A stretch of DNA of 64,000 nucleotides from Candidatus Giovannonibacteria bacterium (lineage in GTDB: Bacteria > Patescibacteriota > Minisyncoccia > UBA11713 > 2-01-FULL-45-33): contig JACOXN010000008.1 in assembly GCA_016176295.1 (NCBI GenBank), forward strand, positions 4,638 to 68,637. The letters are read 5' to 3'. Below are positions 29,532 through 39,385 of this stretch, in pieces. Below the pieces are notes generated by a model, which was not told where the DNA came from, did not search any database, and saw only the letters and a program-made list of their open reading frames with translations. Position 1 is the stretch's first letter. Every line of letters begins with the position of its first letter. Both the position numbers and the translations under genes were made by a program.

Positions 29532-30029
29532 ATGAAAAAAAGCTCAACGGTATTTCTTCAGGCAGTCATTGTGCTCATCGGTATCGTGGCGCTGGCCATC
29601 ATGGTCCGGTTTCCCTTGACCGAGGGAAGAGCCGCAAACTTAGACCTGTTCAGTATTTACGCTGATCCGTTCTTGGTGTATGGATATCTAGCATCTATCG
29701 CTTTTTTTGTTGCTTTATATCAGGCGTTCAAATTACTCGGATACATCGGACAAAATAAAGTATTCTCGCTAGACTCTGTGAAAGCTTTAAGGAATATAAA
29801 ATATTGCGCAATCATATTATGCATCTTAATTGTGATAGCGGCAATATACATCAGGATATCTTGTTGCACAGTAGCTGAAGTAGATGGTGGAGACGATCCG
29901 GCTGGTTTTATTGCCATAAGTATTGTAGCTACTTTTATTTCTATCGTAATTGCAACTGCGGCCGGTGTTTTTGAAAAACTTTTGCAAAAAGCCGTGGATA
30001 TCAAGTCCGAGAACGATTTAACCGTGTAA
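29532..30029 (+). CDS. DUF2975-like membrane protein
   Basis: 165 aa with four TM helices. It is paired with a downstream YozG-like HTH gene, which is the usual arrangement for this family as I recall it. Confidence 0.6.
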   Translation: MKKSSTVFLQAVIVLIGIVALAIMVRFPLTEGRAANLDLFSIYADPFLVYGYLASIAFFVALYQAFKLLGYIGQNKVFSLDSVKALRNIKYCAIILCILIVIAAIYIRISCCTVAEVDGGDDPAGFIAISIVATFISIVIATAAGVFEKLLQKAVDIKSENDLTV

Positions 30030-30039
30030 CGAAACCAAT

Positions 30040-30243
30040 ATGGCAATCATAATTAATATCGACGTCATGTTGGCTAAAAGGAAAATGAGCGTCACTGAAC
30101 TTGCCCTAAAAGTCGGCATCACAATGGCCAATATCTCTATATTGAAAAACAGAAAGGCAAAAGCAATCCGCTTTTCAACCTTGGGAGCAATCTGCAAGGC
30201 ATTAGAATGCCAGCCCGGAGATATTTTGGAATATAAAAAGTAG
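30040..30243 (+). CDS. small XRE/YozG-like helix-turn-helix transcriptional regulator
   Basis: 67 aa. MLAKRKMSVTELALKVGITMANISILKNRKAKAIRFSTLGAICKALECQPGDILEY. The last 31 nt, including the stop, lie inside the 46-bp island repeat. Confidence 0.8.
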   Translation: MAIIINIDVMLAKRKMSVTELALKVGITMANISILKNRKAKAIRFSTLGAICKALECQPGDILEYKK

Positions 30244-30258
30244 ATGAAAACTCGATTA
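30213..30258 (+). repeat. 46-bp perfect direct repeat, left copy (island boundary)
   Basis: GCCCGGAGATATTTTGGAATATAAAAAGTAGATGAAAACTCGATTA is identical to 38227-38272. One mismatch plus 4 further matches follow. Confidence 0.97.
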
Positions 30259-30280
30259 TTCGGGCCGCACCCCGCCTCAT

Positions 30281-30700
30281 TCAAAAAATCAGTTTTTGCA
30301 GTTTCTCATTTTTACCGGGATCTGGCGCAACAAATATCCTGCGATCACTCGTGCCTCCTATATCCCTGATTATTCCTTTTCGGAATTTTATCCAATTGAT
30401 TATGCTTCCGCCCAATGGAGGTTTGTGGTGCGGAGTGATACTCCCGTCGGGCTTAAAGTAAAAGCATCTGTTTTCGCCCATAACGAGGCACGCCTGATAC
30501 CCGAACCTTTGGGGAAAATCGCCGTATGTGTCGATAAGATACTGTTCGCCTTCCGCGATAAATTCATCGGGAATAGGTATCAGCGAATAAACGCCGAAGC
30601 CGACCCTTACCACCAAATATGGAAAATCCTCTGAGTGGAGCTTGCCTTCCGGCCAGGCAAGTGTGGTGTAATCGTCTTTGAAGAGATTAATTTCAGCCAT
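30281..30700 (-). CDS. hypothetical protein (139 aa) under SAM-I riboswitch control
   Basis: ATG at 30700 directly follows the riboswitch terminator U-tract. Product is MAEINLFKDDYTTLAWPEGKLHSEDFPYLVVRVGFGVYSLIPIPDEF... with no TM and no recognisable motif. The track ORF extends to a GTG at 30778, inside the expression platform. Confidence 0.6.
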   Translation of the reverse strand: MAEINLFKDDYTTLAWPEGKLHSEDFPYLVVRVGFGVYSLIPIPDEFIAEGEQYLIDTYGDFPQRFGYQACLVMGENRCFYFKPDGSITPHHKPPLGGSIINWIKFRKGIIRDIGGTSDRRIFVAPDPGKNEKLQKLIF

Positions 30701-31225: not shown

Positions 31226-31648
31226 TCATAAATTTAGCAAAATTGAACCAACTTTCTTAATAGCATTGCTTGGATTTTTCTTTATTTCGTGCTCCCAGAT
31301 CCGCAGAACTTTCCATCCGGCTTTACGAAGTTTTATTTGGTTTTTTTTATCCCTTTTAATATTATCCTCAATTTTTTGCAGCCAATATTTTTTAGGCAAC
31401 CTGTCTTTATTTTTTGCGAATTGATACCCATGCCAAAAATCCCCGTCAATAAATACGGCAAGCTTATGTTTTGGGAAAACGATATCCGGCTTCCCTGGCA
31501 GTTTTGAACAGTGTTTAATATAACGAAATCCCTTCGGATATATTTGACTGCTTAATAACTTAAGAAATTCGATTTCAAGTTTAGTATTTTTGGCACGTAT
31601 GCGAGACATGATTTCGCTTCTTTTCTTTTTCGTGAAAACATCCATCAT
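31226..31648 (-). CDS. vsr: very short patch repair endonuclease
   Basis: 140 aa with RSEIMSRIRAKNTKLE, GKPDIVFPKHKLAVFIDGDFWHG and WKVLRIWEHE. These are Vsr hallmarks. Confidence 0.9.
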   Translation of the reverse strand: MMDVFTKKKRSEIMSRIRAKNTKLEIEFLKLLSSQIYPKGFRYIKHCSKLPGKPDIVFPKHKLAVFIDGDFWHGYQFAKNKDRLPKKYWLQKIEDNIKRDKKNQIKLRKAGWKVLRIWEHEIKKNPSNAIKKVGSILLNL

Positions 31649-31656
31649 CAGACCTA

Positions 31657-33540
31657 TTACTTCATCTGATAGTAAAAATACGTCCCTTCTGGAAATTTAA
31701 TGTTGGGGACCCACAGAGGGCGGCCGTTCCAGCCCTTCTCAGTTTCCCCATTGAGTCTATACATTATTAGGACTAATTGATTGTTATAATGGCTTGCGAG
31801 TTCTCGGTCAGGAGGAGAAAGTAAAGTACGTGTTCCTTTGCTTATGCTTCTGTTTGTTCTAATAATCAATTTGCATTGATATTTTGCATGTTTTTTAAGC
31901 GAACGAACGCAATCCGCAAACGAATGCTGATACCAAAGATCGTTTTTTTCTATGGTGACCGAATTAAGAAGTTTCTCTGCTTCAGCAAGCGGAATATCGC
32001 GTTCATCATCTGATGTTCCAAGCTCTGCATCCAATTTTTTTAACCCAGCATCTGTTGGCAGCATTGGGAAGTAGTTGACATTGCCGGCAACAACCATTAA
32101 ATCGTCCTTTAGTACGACATTGGCTCGGGTCGGCCTTGTTCCAGCTGGAGTCAAAATGCTTACAGCTTGCGGGCCTTTCTGCCTTAGAGTTTCAAACAAA
32201 GCGTTATTTGCATCGTTTAGTTCTTTGAATAACTTTATTAATGGCCGAGGACTAAAGATGCGACATAGCCCAGAATCGCGATCGTACCCAAAAATTCTTG
32301 CGTGCTGCCAATAAGTATCTGCTTGCGGTTTTTTCGAGCTTCTGCAATAATAAACGACTTGAAGGCCTGGAAAAGTAACGCCTCGCCCCAATGTGTTGCC
32401 TCCTATAACAATATTGAGTCCTTTGTCATAAACTGCTCCATCCGGCGTGTTTGAATTAAGTACTATGATGCTGATAATAGGCATATCTGATCTAAGAAAT
32501 TGCATTATTTCATCAAAACTTTTTATACTCGCTTTTGTTTTAGAAAATTCCTCCCACGCATCACGAAGATCGAATTCGAGAGTTGCGGAATTAGCTATCA
32601 AATCATTTTTTACTCCTTCAAGAAATTTTTCTATTTTAGTGCTGACTGTACTGTGTTCGCTAATCCTTGTTCCCGGATGTATCAGCATCGTACAAACAGG
32701 TTTCTCTTTAGTTAGAAAAAGATCAGAGGCAGCCACCAAAAAGTGCAACGCTGCTTTCCGAAGCCCTATCGGTACGTGTTCCGCTTTTAAGAGATCGTCT
32801 CGTTCATTATCTTCGGTTTCGATAGCACATTTCGACTCATCTCCATAAAAGAAATCTCCCCCCAGATAACCTTTTCCTGGAGGAAGATAAAATGAATACT
32901 CTGGCTTCCAAAGGGATTGCGATACCTGTAACACAAGCGATTGAGGCGTTGCTGTTACATGAAGGTAAATGCTAGATGGCGCTTGCGAGTTAATCTTTTC
33001 AAGAAGCCTATTTATTGCGCTTTGATCTTTTTGATTGATTTTTGTATTTAAACTTGAGGCATCCGCCTCATCATCAAGAATAAATAATGGCTCATCCTTA
33101 TATATCGGATTGCTGTCGATATTGTTTGACCACGTCTTGAGAACGCTGGCATTCTTTTTCAAAACAAGCATAGTAGGCATCTGCAATCCTCGGGTTAAAA
33201 AAGCTTGTTCATCCATTTCTCCCAGAACATTGAACCCTGCAATAAATCCTCCAAGAGCTGCCTTAGCCCGTTCAAGCGTTTGTTTGTGCAGAATCACATT
33301 ATCAGTAGTGACCAGAATAAAGAATTTGAATCCTTTGTCAGCTGCAGCTGAAGCAATAGCTAGCATTTGCCCAGTTTTACCGCTTTGGACGTGCCCATAA
33401 AGCAATCCGGACGCATGGCTGTTAAAATCAAAAGTATCGACATGCTTTTTTGTAAACTCATCTGCACTCCTCCTTAAAGAAACCTCCAATGCCGGAGATT
33501 GCGTTGCAACGCGCTTAAGATAATTTTCTAAATAGGTCAT
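31657..33540 (-). CDS. SF2 helicase-like ATPase with Z1 domain (N-protein of a CglI/NgoAVII-type restriction system)
   Basis: 627 aa with Walker A GHVQSGKTG, Walker B FILDDEADASS and VTATPQSL. The Z1-like segment is IGGNTLGRGVTFPGLQVVYYCRSSKKPQADTYWQHARIFGYDR. Its start overlaps the nuclease stop (ATGA). Confidence 0.75.
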   Translation of the reverse strand: MTYLENYLKRVATQSPALEVSLRRSADEFTKKHVDTFDFNSHASGLLYGHVQSGKTGQMLAIASAAADKGFKFFILVTTDNVILHKQTLERAKAALGGFIAGFNVLGEMDEQAFLTRGLQMPTMLVLKKNASVLKTWSNNIDSNPIYKDEPLFILDDEADASSLNTKINQKDQSAINRLLEKINSQAPSSIYLHVTATPQSLVLQVSQSLWKPEYSFYLPPGKGYLGGDFFYGDESKCAIETEDNERDDLLKAEHVPIGLRKAALHFLVAASDLFLTKEKPVCTMLIHPGTRISEHSTVSTKIEKFLEGVKNDLIANSATLEFDLRDAWEEFSKTKASIKSFDEIMQFLRSDMPIISIIVLNSNTPDGAVYDKGLNIVIGGNTLGRGVTFPGLQVVYYCRSSKKPQADTYWQHARIFGYDRDSGLCRIFSPRPLIKLFKELNDANNALFETLRQKGPQAVSILTPAGTRPTRANVVLKDDLMVVAGNVNYFPMLPTDAGLKKLDAELGTSDDERDIPLAEAEKLLNSVTIEKNDLWYQHSFADCVRSLKKHAKYQCKLIIRTNRSISKGTRTLLSPPDRELASHYNNQLVLIMYRLNGETEKGWNGRPLWVPNIKFPEGTYFYYQMK

Positions 33541-34586
33541 CTTTTGTTAGAGAAATCTAAAAGCCATAAATCTGGTTTGATGGTTTGTTTGAGGGAGATG
33601 GTATGACGGCCGTATTTATCCAAAACTTCTTTAGTTACAGGCTGCCCAACCTTAAGGCATCCTGCATTTTCAAGCCGTCCTTTAATCCAGCGACCGAGTG
33701 TTCTCAAATCGTTTTCCGATCTGAAATTTTTTCCATTTTGGCCCTCTATTTTGCATTTGAAAGACCATCCGTCATCGGTAAATACTCGAATAACGGAACC
33801 ATTTTTAGGGTATGTCGGGGATGATGTAATCTCTCTCGGAACTATCAACTCCGCCTCATACCAGTGGCGGGGACGGATTGCTCCTGTTTTAGTTGCAAGC
33901 CTGCCTTTGCCGAAATAAGCATTGAGGTTACTTTTTTCGGTCGTCTTAAGAGGCAAATCAAAAACGGTATCCGTCAAAGCGTTTTCAACTTCCCGGTATG
34001 TTTCTGGGTCGGCTTTTTCCACGCCGATTCTGTTTTTTAACAAATCTCTCGAGGCGTTGAATGCAGCAGGCTTCCAATCAAGAATATTGTGCGATGCTTT
34101 TTTTACAAGATCGCTATGCAAAGATTCAAGATCGCGCAAGGCCTCATTCTCCGTAAAAAACACATCGACTTCCCATTGCCTGCTGTCTACTATATTGCTT
34201 AAATTTGAGGACCCGAGCATCCCTGATATTGGTTCTCCAGCTTTGTAGAATAAATAGGTCTTGCCATGAAATTTAAATGCAGTGCAAACATGGACGCTGC
34301 CTATGTTCTTATCTTTTAGAAAGGAGGCCAAATCAATAGCAGCTTCATATTGCGTCCGCGTAAAACCCTCTCTTCCATGCATGCCCAAAACTAAACTGCA
34401 TGTTTTTACCTTGCCCTCATCAAGATAAAAAAGAAGAATAGACTTTAATTCTAATAGAGACTCTTCCGTGATATAGCCAGTGGCTATTTTAATTTCGTCA
34501 GAATTTAAAATGCCAGATTCAAATGCTTCGCTAAATGTTGAATTGCTGTACTCGCACGGTTTTATGTTCGAGTAAAGAAGTTTCAT
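33537..34586 (-). CDS. PLD-family restriction endonuclease with C-terminal B3-like DNA-binding domain (NgoFVII/NgoAVII/CglI R-protein type)
   Basis: 349 aa. The HKD motif is FKFHGKTYLFYKAGEPISGMLGSSNLS. The C-terminal WYEAELIVPRE...IRVFTDDGWSFKCKIEGQNGKNFRS resembles BfiI/EcoRII-N B3-like domains. Confidence 0.75.
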   Translation of the reverse strand: MKLLYSNIKPCEYSNSTFSEAFESGILNSDEIKIATGYITEESLLELKSILLFYLDEGKVKTCSLVLGMHGREGFTRTQYEAAIDLASFLKDKNIGSVHVCTAFKFHGKTYLFYKAGEPISGMLGSSNLSNIVDSRQWEVDVFFTENEALRDLESLHSDLVKKASHNILDWKPAAFNASRDLLKNRIGVEKADPETYREVENALTDTVFDLPLKTTEKSNLNAYFGKGRLATKTGAIRPRHWYEAELIVPREITSSPTYPKNGSVIRVFTDDGWSFKCKIEGQNGKNFRSENDLRTLGRWIKGRLENAGCLKVGQPVTKEVLDKYGRHTISLKQTIKPDLWLLDFSNKR

Positions 34587-34596
34587 TCAAGTATCT

Positions 34597-35652
34597 TTAT
34601 AATTCGCTTAAAAACTTTTTAATTGCTCTAGCTATCGGCCTTATCCCGGCAGGTGGGACTGAGTTTCCAATCTGTCTTCTTACTTCAGCTATCGAGCCTG
34701 CAAAAACAAAATCATCAGGATAGCCAAAGAGCCTGGCGCGTTCTCTATTCGTTAAAGGCCGAGGTTCATTGAAATGGTATCCCCAAGTGCCTCCGCCCCC
34801 GCCTGCGATGATGGTAGTTGACGGCTTGTCCGGATGCAAGCGACGATAAACATGAGAAATCATTCCTTTGACATAATGCGGAGAGGTTTTAGGAATATCT
34901 GTGAAATTTCCTCCTGGAGGAATAAGCCTCAATTTTGCGATAGTGCTGGGATTAATATTTTGATGTTCGTTGTTAAAAATTGCTTTTTCCACCCCCCGCA
35001 AGGCCTCCTTGGCAGTAACGTAATTTCCCGGACCACGCGTAGGTGCAGGCAACTCAAAATCTTTTTTGATGTCATTGCGAACGCCAATAATCAGCACCCT
35101 TTCCCGCAGCTGGGGAGCCCCATAACTGGCAAAATTAATCGGATTTACCGTTACTTTGTAACCAGCTTCTGCAAAGTCGCTTCTAATCTGTTCAACAGCT
35201 TTTCCTTTGTTTGCGCTCAAAAGACCCTTTACATTTTCGGCGACAAACATTTTGGGCTGTTTTGCAACAACAATCCGTACAAATTGGCGATATAAATTTC
35301 CGCGTTCTGTTTTTAAACCCATGCGTTTCCATACCATGGAAAAATCTTGGCAAGGAAACCCGCCTAAAACAATATCGCAACAAGGAATATCGTCTGTTTT
35401 GACATCAACTATGCTTCCTTCAACAATATGATCGCCGAAATAATTTTTGAAAGTCTCACATGCCCAATGATTAACGTCATTTGCCCATATCACATCAAAG
35501 CCCTCCTGTTCGAATCCAAGGTCCATGCCCCCGGACCCCGAAAAAAGTGATACAATTTTTAATGAATTCTTGGCTCCTTTGCTTGCTTTTTGAAACTCGC
35601 TTTTTACGAGTTTTGTATTAACTTTGGACTGTTTTTTTTGTTCGGTTTGCAT
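34597..35652 (-). CDS. DNA (cytosine-5)-methyltransferase
   Basis: 351 aa. Motif I SLFSGSGGMDLGF, motif IV GGFPCQDFS, ENVKGL, motif X QIGNSVPP. Confidence 0.93.
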   Translation of the reverse strand: MQTEQKKQSKVNTKLVKSEFQKASKGAKNSLKIVSLFSGSGGMDLGFEQEGFDVIWANDVNHWACETFKNYFGDHIVEGSIVDVKTDDIPCCDIVLGGFPCQDFSMVWKRMGLKTERGNLYRQFVRIVVAKQPKMFVAENVKGLLSANKGKAVEQIRSDFAEAGYKVTVNPINFASYGAPQLRERVLIIGVRNDIKKDFELPAPTRGPGNYVTAKEALRGVEKAIFNNEHQNINPSTIAKLRLIPPGGNFTDIPKTSPHYVKGMISHVYRRLHPDKPSTTIIAGGGGGTWGYHFNEPRPLTNRERARLFGYPDDFVFAGSIAEVRRQIGNSVPPAGIRPIARAIKKFLSEL

Positions 35653-35775
35653 GATTACATTGTATACAATTTATGGCGAAAAAGCCGCCCCTCTAAATTG
35701 CCGGAAACGCATATTATGGCTTCATTGAGCCGCAAAAAAGGCTTAAACATGTGGATAAGCTCTGCTGGCTTATTA

Positions 35776-38022
35776 TTATTGAACATGATTCACCGTATCG
35801 CTTGCAAAAATTGTAGTGTGAGTGTTTCCGGGTGCCATTATTACAGGCCACCAAAAGGAAGAACCCATCCATCCTTGATTTTCGTCTCCTTTGACATGAA
35901 CCAAAATCAGAACTGGAATGTTTTCAGCTATCTTTTGCGCAATGGCACGAGTTGTCTCGCTATCAGGAACGTCAGAAAAACGGCCTCCCGTTCTAATTCT
36001 AGTTATATCGCTCTCTGACTTTATAACATATACCTTGCCTGTTAGAGTTTTATCACAAGAGTTAATTGATAAATGTTCAAGACTTGCCTTGTGTGCTTTT
36101 ATATCCCATTTAGTTCCTTTTTCTTCGGAAAATGTTTTGTCGATTTTTTCAAGTAAGCCAACAGCCTGATCGATTGAAATTATATAGTGGTTTGCATCCG
36201 GCACAGCTGCCTGTAATCCAAGAATTTCATTATCTAATTCCTCTATGTACTTTTTGATATTGCTTTTAAAGCCGGTTTGGAAACCTATGGGTAATAGTCT
36301 TTTGTACGATTTAAGCGTCGTAATGCTTGATAGCATTATTTTGTTTGGGGAACAGGGAACCAATTTATCGTTAGCGTCTTTACGAATAAAATAAACACCA
36401 CGTTCATGCGAACCATTGAGAAATGCTTCTCGAAGAGCGTTATCAAATTCGTGAATCCGACGCATGATTTCGTAAATACCACGCGTGGTATAAAAACGAG
36501 TGACTGCCAAATCCTCTTTAGATCGGGCTCCGTACATTCGCGAGTGCTGCAAAACGGTATCTTGCTGAAATTTCTTCGGGTTTCGGCCATAGTAAAACCC
36601 GATCATATTTTTTATTGTAATACCACGATCCAAAATTTGTCCGCCTATAAAAATGTTGAGAGGAGTCCGCAGTTTTAGTTGTCCTTTGACGTCGAGCAGA
36701 GCCTTAACATCTTTGTCAGAATTAACCTTTTCAACAACAAGCATGCCACCTATCAATGCTTTGGATACATTCTGTAAAACAGAATCGAATTCAGGAAGTT
36801 TAATGTCTGTAAGCTCAATAGATTTTTTCAGATCGGCGTACGCGTCTTTAACCAACCGGTCAAAAAGGGTCCGATCTTCTTTAGCGATTTTTATCAATTC
36901 TTCGTTAAGCTTATTTACAACGTCTTCCTGCCAGTTGTGCGAGCTTCGCGACTGTTCTGTGTGGATAACAAAACTATAATTTTCCTGTCTTTTCTCGGTC
37001 TCTTCCTGCTGAATCCGCCGGATACAACCTCCAACAATAAAATTCATTATTGAATTTCTGATTGTCTTGGTTGATGGGCTTGTAAATACCTCTTCAATTT
37101 TGAATGACCGGCGATCAGCTCTTTTCAACTTCTTTGTGGCTTTCAAAATTTCAAGCTCTTCCGGCGGAACTTCTTCGTAAACATAAGAAGCGGCCGTACC
37201 ATCTTTTTCGCTTTCTATAAAATAATAGTCTCCACCCACATAATCCTTATGAATTGGCACGAGAACCGTAAAAGCTGGCCGCTTGGGAGGGAAGATCCCG
37301 GTCTCACTTTCGGCATCATCTGGCTGGAGATATAGGGAGTATGGCGTTGCGGTTACCTGCAAAAAATCTGACTGCTCGACTTTGGTTCTTATTTCATCAA
37401 TCTGTTTGGCAATTTTCCCTTGCTCAATGAGACCGCTTTCTTTTTCTTTATGAAAACTAATACTTGCGAAATCAGCCTCATCATCAATGATAAGAATCTT
37501 TTTGTTCTTAAGGTCAGGGTAAGTATTTGTGAGATCATTCAGAACACGTTTGAGATTATTAATTTCCTTCTTGGCGACAATAATGAGCTTCTGGCTCAAT
37601 TCATACGGAACCATATTTTTGGGGAAAAACATAATGTCGTGAATTTGCACTTTGTTATCATCTTCAAAGACACTGAAATCTTCGTGCAGTCGTTTCAGCG
37701 TCTGTTCCGTAAGCGGTTTTGTTCCTTTGGTCAGAATAATCGTTATGTCGTAACCATTATCAAAAGCAAGTGCAATTGCACCCAGAAATGCCCGAGTTTT
37801 ACCGCTCTGAACTTTACCGAGCAAAATACCAGGTTTTTTAGAGCTTGTATCAGAAGCCAATAATTTATTGACAATTTCTTCGATACAATCTTTCAAACCG
37901 CTATCATCCTTACGATTTGCAGTTAATGTATTATAAAAATGACTTTTCCTCAAAACTACATTTTTAAGTTTTGATTCCTGTATTAAACCTTTATCTTTTT
38001 TGGTATCTGTGTCGAACGCCAT
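35776..38022 (-). CDS. second SF2 helicase-like ATPase with Z1 domain (stand-alone paralog of the N-protein)
   Basis: 748 aa with GKVQSGKTR, LIIDDEADFAS and VTATPYSL. The Z1-like segment is IGGQILDRGITIKNMIGFYYGRNPKKFQQDTVLQHSRMYGAR. The C-terminal GW..W.P tail parallels that of the 627-aa protein. Confidence 0.7.
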   Translation of the reverse strand: MAFDTDTKKDKGLIQESKLKNVVLRKSHFYNTLTANRKDDSGLKDCIEEIVNKLLASDTSSKKPGILLGKVQSGKTRAFLGAIALAFDNGYDITIILTKGTKPLTEQTLKRLHEDFSVFEDDNKVQIHDIMFFPKNMVPYELSQKLIIVAKKEINNLKRVLNDLTNTYPDLKNKKILIIDDEADFASISFHKEKESGLIEQGKIAKQIDEIRTKVEQSDFLQVTATPYSLYLQPDDAESETGIFPPKRPAFTVLVPIHKDYVGGDYYFIESEKDGTAASYVYEEVPPEELEILKATKKLKRADRRSFKIEEVFTSPSTKTIRNSIMNFIVGGCIRRIQQEETEKRQENYSFVIHTEQSRSSHNWQEDVVNKLNEELIKIAKEDRTLFDRLVKDAYADLKKSIELTDIKLPEFDSVLQNVSKALIGGMLVVEKVNSDKDVKALLDVKGQLKLRTPLNIFIGGQILDRGITIKNMIGFYYGRNPKKFQQDTVLQHSRMYGARSKEDLAVTRFYTTRGIYEIMRRIHEFDNALREAFLNGSHERGVYFIRKDANDKLVPCSPNKIMLSSITTLKSYKRLLPIGFQTGFKSNIKKYIEELDNEILGLQAAVPDANHYIISIDQAVGLLEKIDKTFSEEKGTKWDIKAHKASLEHLSINSCDKTLTGKVYVIKSESDITRIRTGGRFSDVPDSETTRAIAQKIAENIPVLILVHVKGDENQGWMGSSFWWPVIMAPGNTHTTIFASDTVNHVQ

Positions 38023-38226
38023 AAATTGCCTTCATCTTCTCACAAATTCCGTTATTTTTCCAGCGTTTTAGAGACGTCCAAATTATCAACTAGGGCTCTA
38101 TGGACTCCTAAGGTAGAGTTGCGTCATTCCTTGTGTTGTATGAAAAACACAAGCATTACAGGGCCTTTGGGGGCGGTCCAGGAGCAAAATAAGTAGCCCC
38201 CGCAAAGGATTAGGTACTGCCTCTAT

Positions 38227-38272
38227 GCCCGGAGATATTTTGGAATATAAAAAGTAGATGAAAACTCGATTA
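38227..38272 (+). repeat. 46-bp perfect direct repeat, right copy (island boundary)
   Basis: Identical to 30213-30258. It encodes an orphan ..PGDILEYKK* with no upstream ORF. Confidence 0.97.
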
Positions 38273-38300
38273 CTCGGATTGCGCCGAAAAAAAATTGTCT

Positions 38301-38390
38301 TGGCGGAGGAGGTGAGATTCGAACTCACGAGAGGATTTCTCCCCTACCGCTTTTCGAGAGCGGCCCATTCAACCACTCTGGCACTCCTCC
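38301..38390 (-). tRNA. tRNA-Ser (anticodon CGA), CCA encoded
   Basis: Acceptor GGAGGAG/CTCCTCC. Anticodon arm CCGCT-CTCGAAA-AGCGG. Long variable arm, T arm GTGAG-TTCGAAT-CTCAC. 3' GCCA. Confidence 0.9.
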
Positions 38391-38408
38391 AAATGGTTTC
38401 AGTTCCTG

Positions 38409-38480
38409 TCCCCCCACTAGGAATCGAACCTAGGTCTACGGATTAAGAGTCCGCTGCTTTACCAATTAAGCTATGGGGGG
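38409..38480 (-). tRNA. tRNA-Lys (anticodon CTT), no encoded CCA, C1:G72 acceptor start
   Basis: Acceptor CCCCCCA/TGGGGGG. D arm GCTT-AATTGGTA-AAGC. Anticodon arm GCGGA-CTCTTAA-TCCGT. T arm CTAGG-TTCGATT-CCTAG. Confidence 0.8.
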
Positions 38481-39206
38481 GGATCTTGTTAAATTTACAG
38501 GACGGGCGGTTTTTGTCAAAACAGTCCATTGTTTTTGCGTTTTTACTACGTGCGGATCCAAGCCGCTTAAAACCGCCTGTATCCACCCGAAAATCCTGTA
38601 CCGCATATCTGTTCCCTTCGGAACTTCTATTCTAATAGTACCGTAATATAAATTATTTTTCCTATAACCTGTGCTAAGCGGTTTTATGAAGCTTTTACCA
38701 AAATGATGTAAAGGTATTTTTGTAAGTTCGGACCAAAATTTTTTTATTTTAAATTCGTTTTGTTGCGGATAAATATTCAAACGAGCCTTTAAAAATTCCG
38801 GCTTGATTTTAAAGATCCTTTCTATCCACAGAACAAAAAACAAAATTAAGTGAGGATCGGAATTAGTAAAAGCCAAATTTTTTCCTTTACTGCCCTCAGC
38901 CCAGTATAAAGCTGCGCCCATCAACCTGCATGTTTCGTGGTCTAACGGCAATTTTACCTCCTTTTTAGCTAACTGCATAATTTCACTTACTTCTTTTGCT
39001 CGTCTTTGCTTTTGGCTTCTTGGTCCCAAAGAAAGAATTTCAATTTGTTTCGTGTATAATCTTTTTCTTTGCTCCCGGTTCAGAATAATGGATTTAAGCC
39101 ATAAACTTAGCGTGCTTTTAGCCACAGGAATTTTACGACGTATTTCGTTATAACTAAGGCCGGATTTCCTTAATAGAATTGCTTGCTTTTTTAATTTTTT
39201 TTTCAT
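38466..39206 (-). CDS. HTH + LAGLIDADG-like (homing-endonuclease-like) protein, paralog 1
   Basis: Start at MKKKLKKQAILLRKSGLSYNEIRRKIPVAKSTLSLWLK (resolvase/IS30-type HTH). This is followed by MGAALYWAEGSKGKNLAFTNSDPHLILFFVLWIERIF (a single LAGLIDADG-like motif). The last 15 nt overlap the tRNA-Lys 5' end. Confidence 0.5.
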   Translation of the reverse strand: MKKKLKKQAILLRKSGLSYNEIRRKIPVAKSTLSLWLKSIILNREQRKRLYTKQIEILSLGPRSQKQRRAKEVSEIMQLAKKEVKLPLDHETCRLMGAALYWAEGSKGKNLAFTNSDPHLILFFVLWIERIFKIKPEFLKARLNIYPQQNEFKIKKFWSELTKIPLHHFGKSFIKPLSTGYRKNNLYYGTIRIEVPKGTDMRYRIFGWIQAVLSGLDPHVVKTQKQWTVLTKTARPVNLTRSPPIA

Positions 39207-39385
39207 ATTTGTACAACCAAGCATACCACACATAATAACCTAAAGGTAGTATTTATTCACATATGGACAAAATATGTTTTTAATGCTATGGTTACCAGGT
39301 AAAAATTCATTAGTGATTGTTCATTGAAATGATAAGGATGTGAACAGATAACGTACTAAACGGAACAAAAAACACGGAGGTTTTT

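Follow-up and report, generated by a model that had tools for sequence, protein, structure and literature searches.

A stand-alone relative of the CglI motor subunit in a Candidatus Giovannonibacteria restriction island belongs to a family of lone DNA-motor genes

Results

The 748-amino-acid ATPase and its motifs

The window analyzed here is a stretch of 64,000 nucleotides from Candidatus Giovannonibacteria bacterium (assembly GCA_016176295.1, contig JACOXN010000008.1, positions 4,638 to 68,637 of the forward strand). An open reading frame (ORF) on its minus strand (35776-38022) encodes a 748-amino-acid (748-aa) ATPase and is separated by a 123-bp spacer (35653-35775) from dcm, the methyltransferase gene of a CglI/NgoAVII-type restriction-modification (R-M) operon. 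The gene belongs to a large family of lone DNA-motor genes that is still uncharacterised, found beside varied restriction systems or solitary. The initial annotation rightly described its product as a second, longer protein with the architecture of the motor subunit (H/N) encoded in the operon. The two proteins are collinear over their full length at 25% identity (E 3e-35), and the alignment pairs the Walker A motif GKVQSGKT (within LGKVQSGKT of the 748-aa protein) with GHVQSGKT, the DEAD box IIDDEAD with ILDDEAD, and the C-terminal tail GW..FWWP with GW..LWVP; VTATP is present too. With motifs defined as in Toliusis et al. 2018, an alignment of 38 homologues (52-85% identical) shows no variation at Walker A and B, at motif III, at the H/H histidines or at motifs V and VI, the last of the QxxR type (invariant residues: Q72, G74, K75, T76, D180-D184, T224-P227, H354/H362, G460-T469 and Q492/R495). 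Inactivating changes in Walker A or B, suggested earlier as a sign of decay, are absent from these relatives, and the invariance points to strong purifying selection on the gene rather than decay.

Structure prediction leads to the same kind of protein. The AlphaFold2 model of the whole chain (predicted local distance difference test, pLDDT, 74) was matched by Foldseek to superfamily 2 (SF2) motors only, such as RIG-I and HsdR, and the model of residues 536-748 (pLDDT 77) has 6F1S, the C-terminal domain of the CglI H subunit, as its sole significant match in the PDB (E 2e-5, probability 1.0, TM 0.68 on target). A sequence search of the PDB with the full protein gave zero matches. Each of the three domains of H subunits is represented in the protein. 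No nuclease can be recognised, in line with the initial annotation: Pfam, PADLOC, NCBIfam and Foldseek reveal no nuclease domain, and neither a recombinase nor a nuclease fold is among the Foldseek matches of the models. A hidden nuclease was likewise rejected, the matches to the PD-(D/E)xK enzymes SwaI and HincII being weak and non-significant (E of at least 0.05).

The start of the ORF deserves a separate remark. Nothing in relatives corresponds to its first 27 codons (37951-38022, minus strand); their proteins begin approximately 5-8 residues ahead of the conserved motif FYNTLT. Starting instead at codon 24, an in-frame TTG, would make the N-terminus resemble that of the homologues, yet it is the annotated ATG that is preceded by the better ribosome-binding site (AAGG at -8).

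Despite the shared architecture, the protein is distant from canonical H/N subunits. Its identity to N.NgoAVII of Neisseria (24.7%) is on par with that to the neighbouring H (25%), whereas the neighbouring H and N.NgoAVII share 37.8%; the two groups as a whole are 20-29% identical, and PADLOC Helicase_II, the model for H, scores the 748-aa protein at 209 bits vs 607 bits for its neighbour. On these sequence comparisons the family forms a clade separate from CglI/NgoAVII H/N. The low identity and the clade separation speak against a recent duplication of H, and the paralogue of the initial annotation, if taken as a local or recent duplicate, has to be abandoned. Similarity to H.CglI and N.NgoAVII lies below orthologue level, and the gene lacks the adjoining, typically overlapping, R subunit gene that accompanies an H/N gene and encodes a phospholipase D (PLD) nuclease with a B3-like domain. 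Functionally, an H/N subunit is defined by assembly into the R2H2 complex that is needed for cleavage.

Distribution and genomic contexts of the family

A scan of one genome per species revealed at least 567 loci of the family, and the best 80 were inspected. These show at least 47% identity and come from the Candidate Phyla Radiation (CPR), Bacillota, Acidobacteriota, Chloroflexota, Planctomycetota, Nitrospirota and Proteobacteria. Members are 40-100% identical and occur at full length in hundreds of genomes, and an exhaustive profile-free search places the wider family at 327 representative clusters (E<=1e-30). Additional N-terminal regions, or C-terminal ones of ~200-400 aa, are found in some relatives of 31-47% identity, and none of these regions has a Pfam match; by eye, an HExxH motif is seen in three of the N-terminal extensions and a QueC-like SGGLDS in one. 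No close relatives were found on plasmids, and in phage records the sole match was an unannotated metagenomic fragment of 6.5 kb, 40% identical. A literature search found no paper dedicated to the clade.

Neighbouring genes, derived from longest-ORF calls and clustering, are highly variable, and similarity to relatives of the 748-aa gene ends at the ORF boundaries. The closest relatives (84% identity) adjoin a Type III system rather than one of CglI type. Among the annotated neighbours are Type III mod and res, which follow immediately downstream after gaps of 1-20 nt, Type I hsdM/S/R, a fused methyltransferase of BcgI-like type with an S subunit, an MvaI/BcnI nuclease with an N4 methyltransferase directly upstream, and an AlwI-like helicase-nuclease with two methyltransferases. 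A DNA methyltransferase of a Type I, II, III, AlwI-like or CglI-like system lies at most three genes away in 30 of 79 loci (38%), a lower bound given by profiles built within the data set. The other loci have mixed neighbours, unrelated or housekeeping genes, including those for SecA, SelA, ClpP and AIR synthase-related proteins, and a few integrases or McrBC. The family is enriched beside R-M systems of all types and has no conserved partner. It is absent from all 30 CglI-type loci examined for it; a single N gene is the norm for CglI/NgoAVII-type loci, as the initial annotation stated. The survey of loci with two Z1 ATPase genes proposed there revealed no recurrence: among 110 surveyed loci, a second such gene stands beside a CglI-type operon only here.

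The neighbouring restriction operon

The operon downstream, encoded like the ATPase on the minus strand, comprises the C5-cytosine methyltransferase gene dcm (34597-35652; Pfam DNA_methylase, E 1e-75), the R subunit with an NgoFVII-type PLD nuclease and a B3-like DNA-binding domain (33537-34586; Pfam RE_NgoFVII and RE_NgoFVII_C; PADLOC REase_II, 322 bits), the canonical 627-aa H/N subunit (31657-33540), whose gene overlaps that of R by 4 nt, and the very-short-patch repair endonuclease vsr (31226-31648; Pfam Vsr, TIGR00632). As a CglI/NgoAVII-type system the operon is complete, H motor included. Dcm is 59% identical to its counterpart at the Neisseria locus and 84% to that at locus L093, where H is 85% identical. 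DNA similarity of the nearest operons (H 74-85% identical) to the window is confined to dcm-R-H (35555-31657), beginning inside dcm and ending at the stop codon of H.

A SAM-I riboswitch (RF00162; 30796-30926, minus strand; 59.6 bits vs a gathering score of 44.4) lies within the same island, upstream of a 139-aa ORF (30281-30700, minus strand) which has no Pfam match and which retrieved only itself from a collection of 5.8 billion proteins. A switch sensing S-adenosylmethionine (SAM) on such an ORFan, in an island that also carries a SAM-dependent methyltransferase, is an unusual combination.

Island boundaries and repeat-flanked relatives

Both the ATPase gene and dcm-R-H-vsr lie between two copies of a 51-nt direct repeat (30213-30263 and 38227-38277) that are 98% identical. 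The repeat is made up of the final 31 nt of a small HTH_26 gene (30040-30243, plus strand), itself paired with a DUF2975 gene (29532-30029), and ~20 nt beyond it; the left copy is the genuine 3′ end of the gene and the right copy is displaced, 23 nt from tRNA-Ser. The 7.96-kb interval has a GC content below that of the flanks and holds the 748-aa gene at its edge; position 38226, named earlier as the right end of the island, is the last before the right repeat. The two modules share one low-GC island inserted at the 3′ end of HTH_26 next to tRNA-Ser. No integrase is seen inside or beside the island; genes in its flanks code for NUDIX proteins, DUF2975, HTH_26 and a protein resembling glycosyltransferases. 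Looking up the exact protein sequences of HTH_26 and DUF2975 from the flanks gave no record of an empty site.

Beyond the right repeat lie tRNA-Ser (38301-38390, minus strand; ARAGORN and Rfam) and tRNA-Lys (38408-38480, minus strand). A 255-aa low-GC ORF (38466-39233, minus strand), left unmatched by Pfam, NCBIfam and PADLOC, shares 15 nt at its 3′ end with tRNA-Lys; the stretch ALYWAEGSKG...FTNSD in its product resembles LAGLIDADG-type proteins, by eye only.

At five other loci a gene of the family is nearly the sole cargo of a 2.4-3.2 kb insertion between direct repeats. In L055 the repeat (51 nt) derives from the 3′ end of tRNA-Pro(GGG), and adjoining genes encode peptide deformylase, a HAD hydrolase and a flavin adenine dinucleotide (FAD) oxidase; the repeats measure 48 nt in L022, ~62 nt in L030, 58 nt in L044 and 41 nt in L040, which also carries a DUF3800 gene and adjoins clpP. 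Most loci of the family show no flanking repeats. Repeat-flanked remnants can come from the decay of larger islands. How minimal, integrase-less islands with a single gene move is a separate question.

The upstream region

The region upstream of the ATPase gene (38023-38226, minus strand) contains two hairpins, both lying no more than 100 nt inward from the right repeat. They are present where the initial annotation placed them, but the structured leader that it read into them is not supported. The hairpin at 38130-38153 has a perfect 8-bp stem (z -3.56 vs shuffles), of a type that occurs 43 times in the window vs approximately 9 times in shuffled sequence; the fold of the hairpin at 38164-38208 is no better than shuffles (z -0.04), and larger pieces give z -0.26 (a 107-nt segment) and z -1.66 (a 278-nt region). 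Rfam returns no family for 38023-38226, and at E<=1 over 37900-38600 only two tRNA hits and two sub-threshold matches that overlap the tRNA genes (Plastid-ycf2, 39.1 bits vs gathering 65.7; sX4, 21.6 vs 70). The sequences upstream of ten homologous genes are unrelated and unalignable. The hairpins do not qualify as a known cis-regulatory RNA, and the missing Rfam match, weak folding scores, commonness of the stems and lack of conservation together led to the rejection of a riboswitch or leader RNA. Intrinsic terminators of the tRNA operon were also rejected: a U-run follows neither stem, and a terminator scan was negative there. The hairpins could, speculatively, be features of the island end.

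Discussion

We infer, with moderate confidence, that the 748-aa gene is an independent, partner-agnostic module encoding a double-stranded DNA (dsDNA) translocase, and favour a function tied to defence or R-M. By analogy with the biochemistry of the prototype H.CglI (PMC5861437), the protein would use ATP hydrolysis to power translocation along dsDNA, probably in dimeric form. Several points weigh against this reading. Neither experiments nor papers on the clade were found. A motor without an effector makes an incomplete mechanism, and a partner may be encoded elsewhere in the genome, as the data are contig-level. Same-strand gaps of 1-20 nt to R-M genes in many loci may mean real operonic coupling, which would speak for a helper role rather than full autonomy. 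The context survey relies on crude ORF calls, a lower bound on methyltransferases and the inspected 80 loci alone, and no integrase inside the island accounts for the joining of its modules.

The main variant of the favoured reading is a generic restriction helper acting in trans, a translocase that boosts or guards any R-M system present, for example by clearing proteins off invading DNA or by sensing blocked restriction. It would account for R-M-adjacent and solitary loci alike, and it is consistent with the methyltransferases of Type I, II, III and CglI-like systems found nearby, often at the short same-strand distances just mentioned, with the independent re-formation of the R-M association, and with the very high sequence conservation, which suggests a universal substrate such as DNA. 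We nevertheless consider this variant unlikely: approximately 60% of loci lack an R-M gene in the vicinity, some being single-gene insertions among housekeeping genes, and defence islands alone could give the same adjacency.

The second motor subunit of a hetero-oligomer proposed in the initial annotation, that is, a dedicated third subunit of the dcm-R-H enzyme, is unlikely because the pairing is unique among the surveyed loci. Another earlier suggestion, a remnant of a second system, came nearest in its second half, as the gene does represent a second system, though a module of a single gene. A decaying remnant of a CglI-like system that lost its nuclease would explain why the gene stands without an R gene of its own; the invariant ATPase motifs and the persistence of the family at full length across hundreds of genomes largely refute it, no member outside this locus lies near an R gene, and we regard the possibility as essentially excluded.

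Known systems that invite comparison include, besides the two below, the motor subunits HsdR and Res of Type I and III restriction enzymes. MzaC of the MZA system is distinct: the 748-aa protein reaches 71 bits against the NCBIfam cut-off of 1500, with partial coverage only, and its neighbours are dcm and tRNA genes, with no MzaA, MzaB, MzaD or MzaE seen. The likeness to CglI/NgoAVII H/N extends over the three-domain architecture, the Walker A variant GxxQSGKT, the DEAD box, TATP, the H/H motif, motif V, the short QxxR motif VI and a C-terminal domain of the 6F1S fold with its GW..W.P tail. Unlike those subunits, the protein is ~120 residues longer, and its family has no conserved partner, is never beside a PLD-B3 R gene except coincidentally here, and displays conserved motifs of its own, such as VPCSPNK, WDxKxHKASLEHLS and QQDTVLQHSRMYG.
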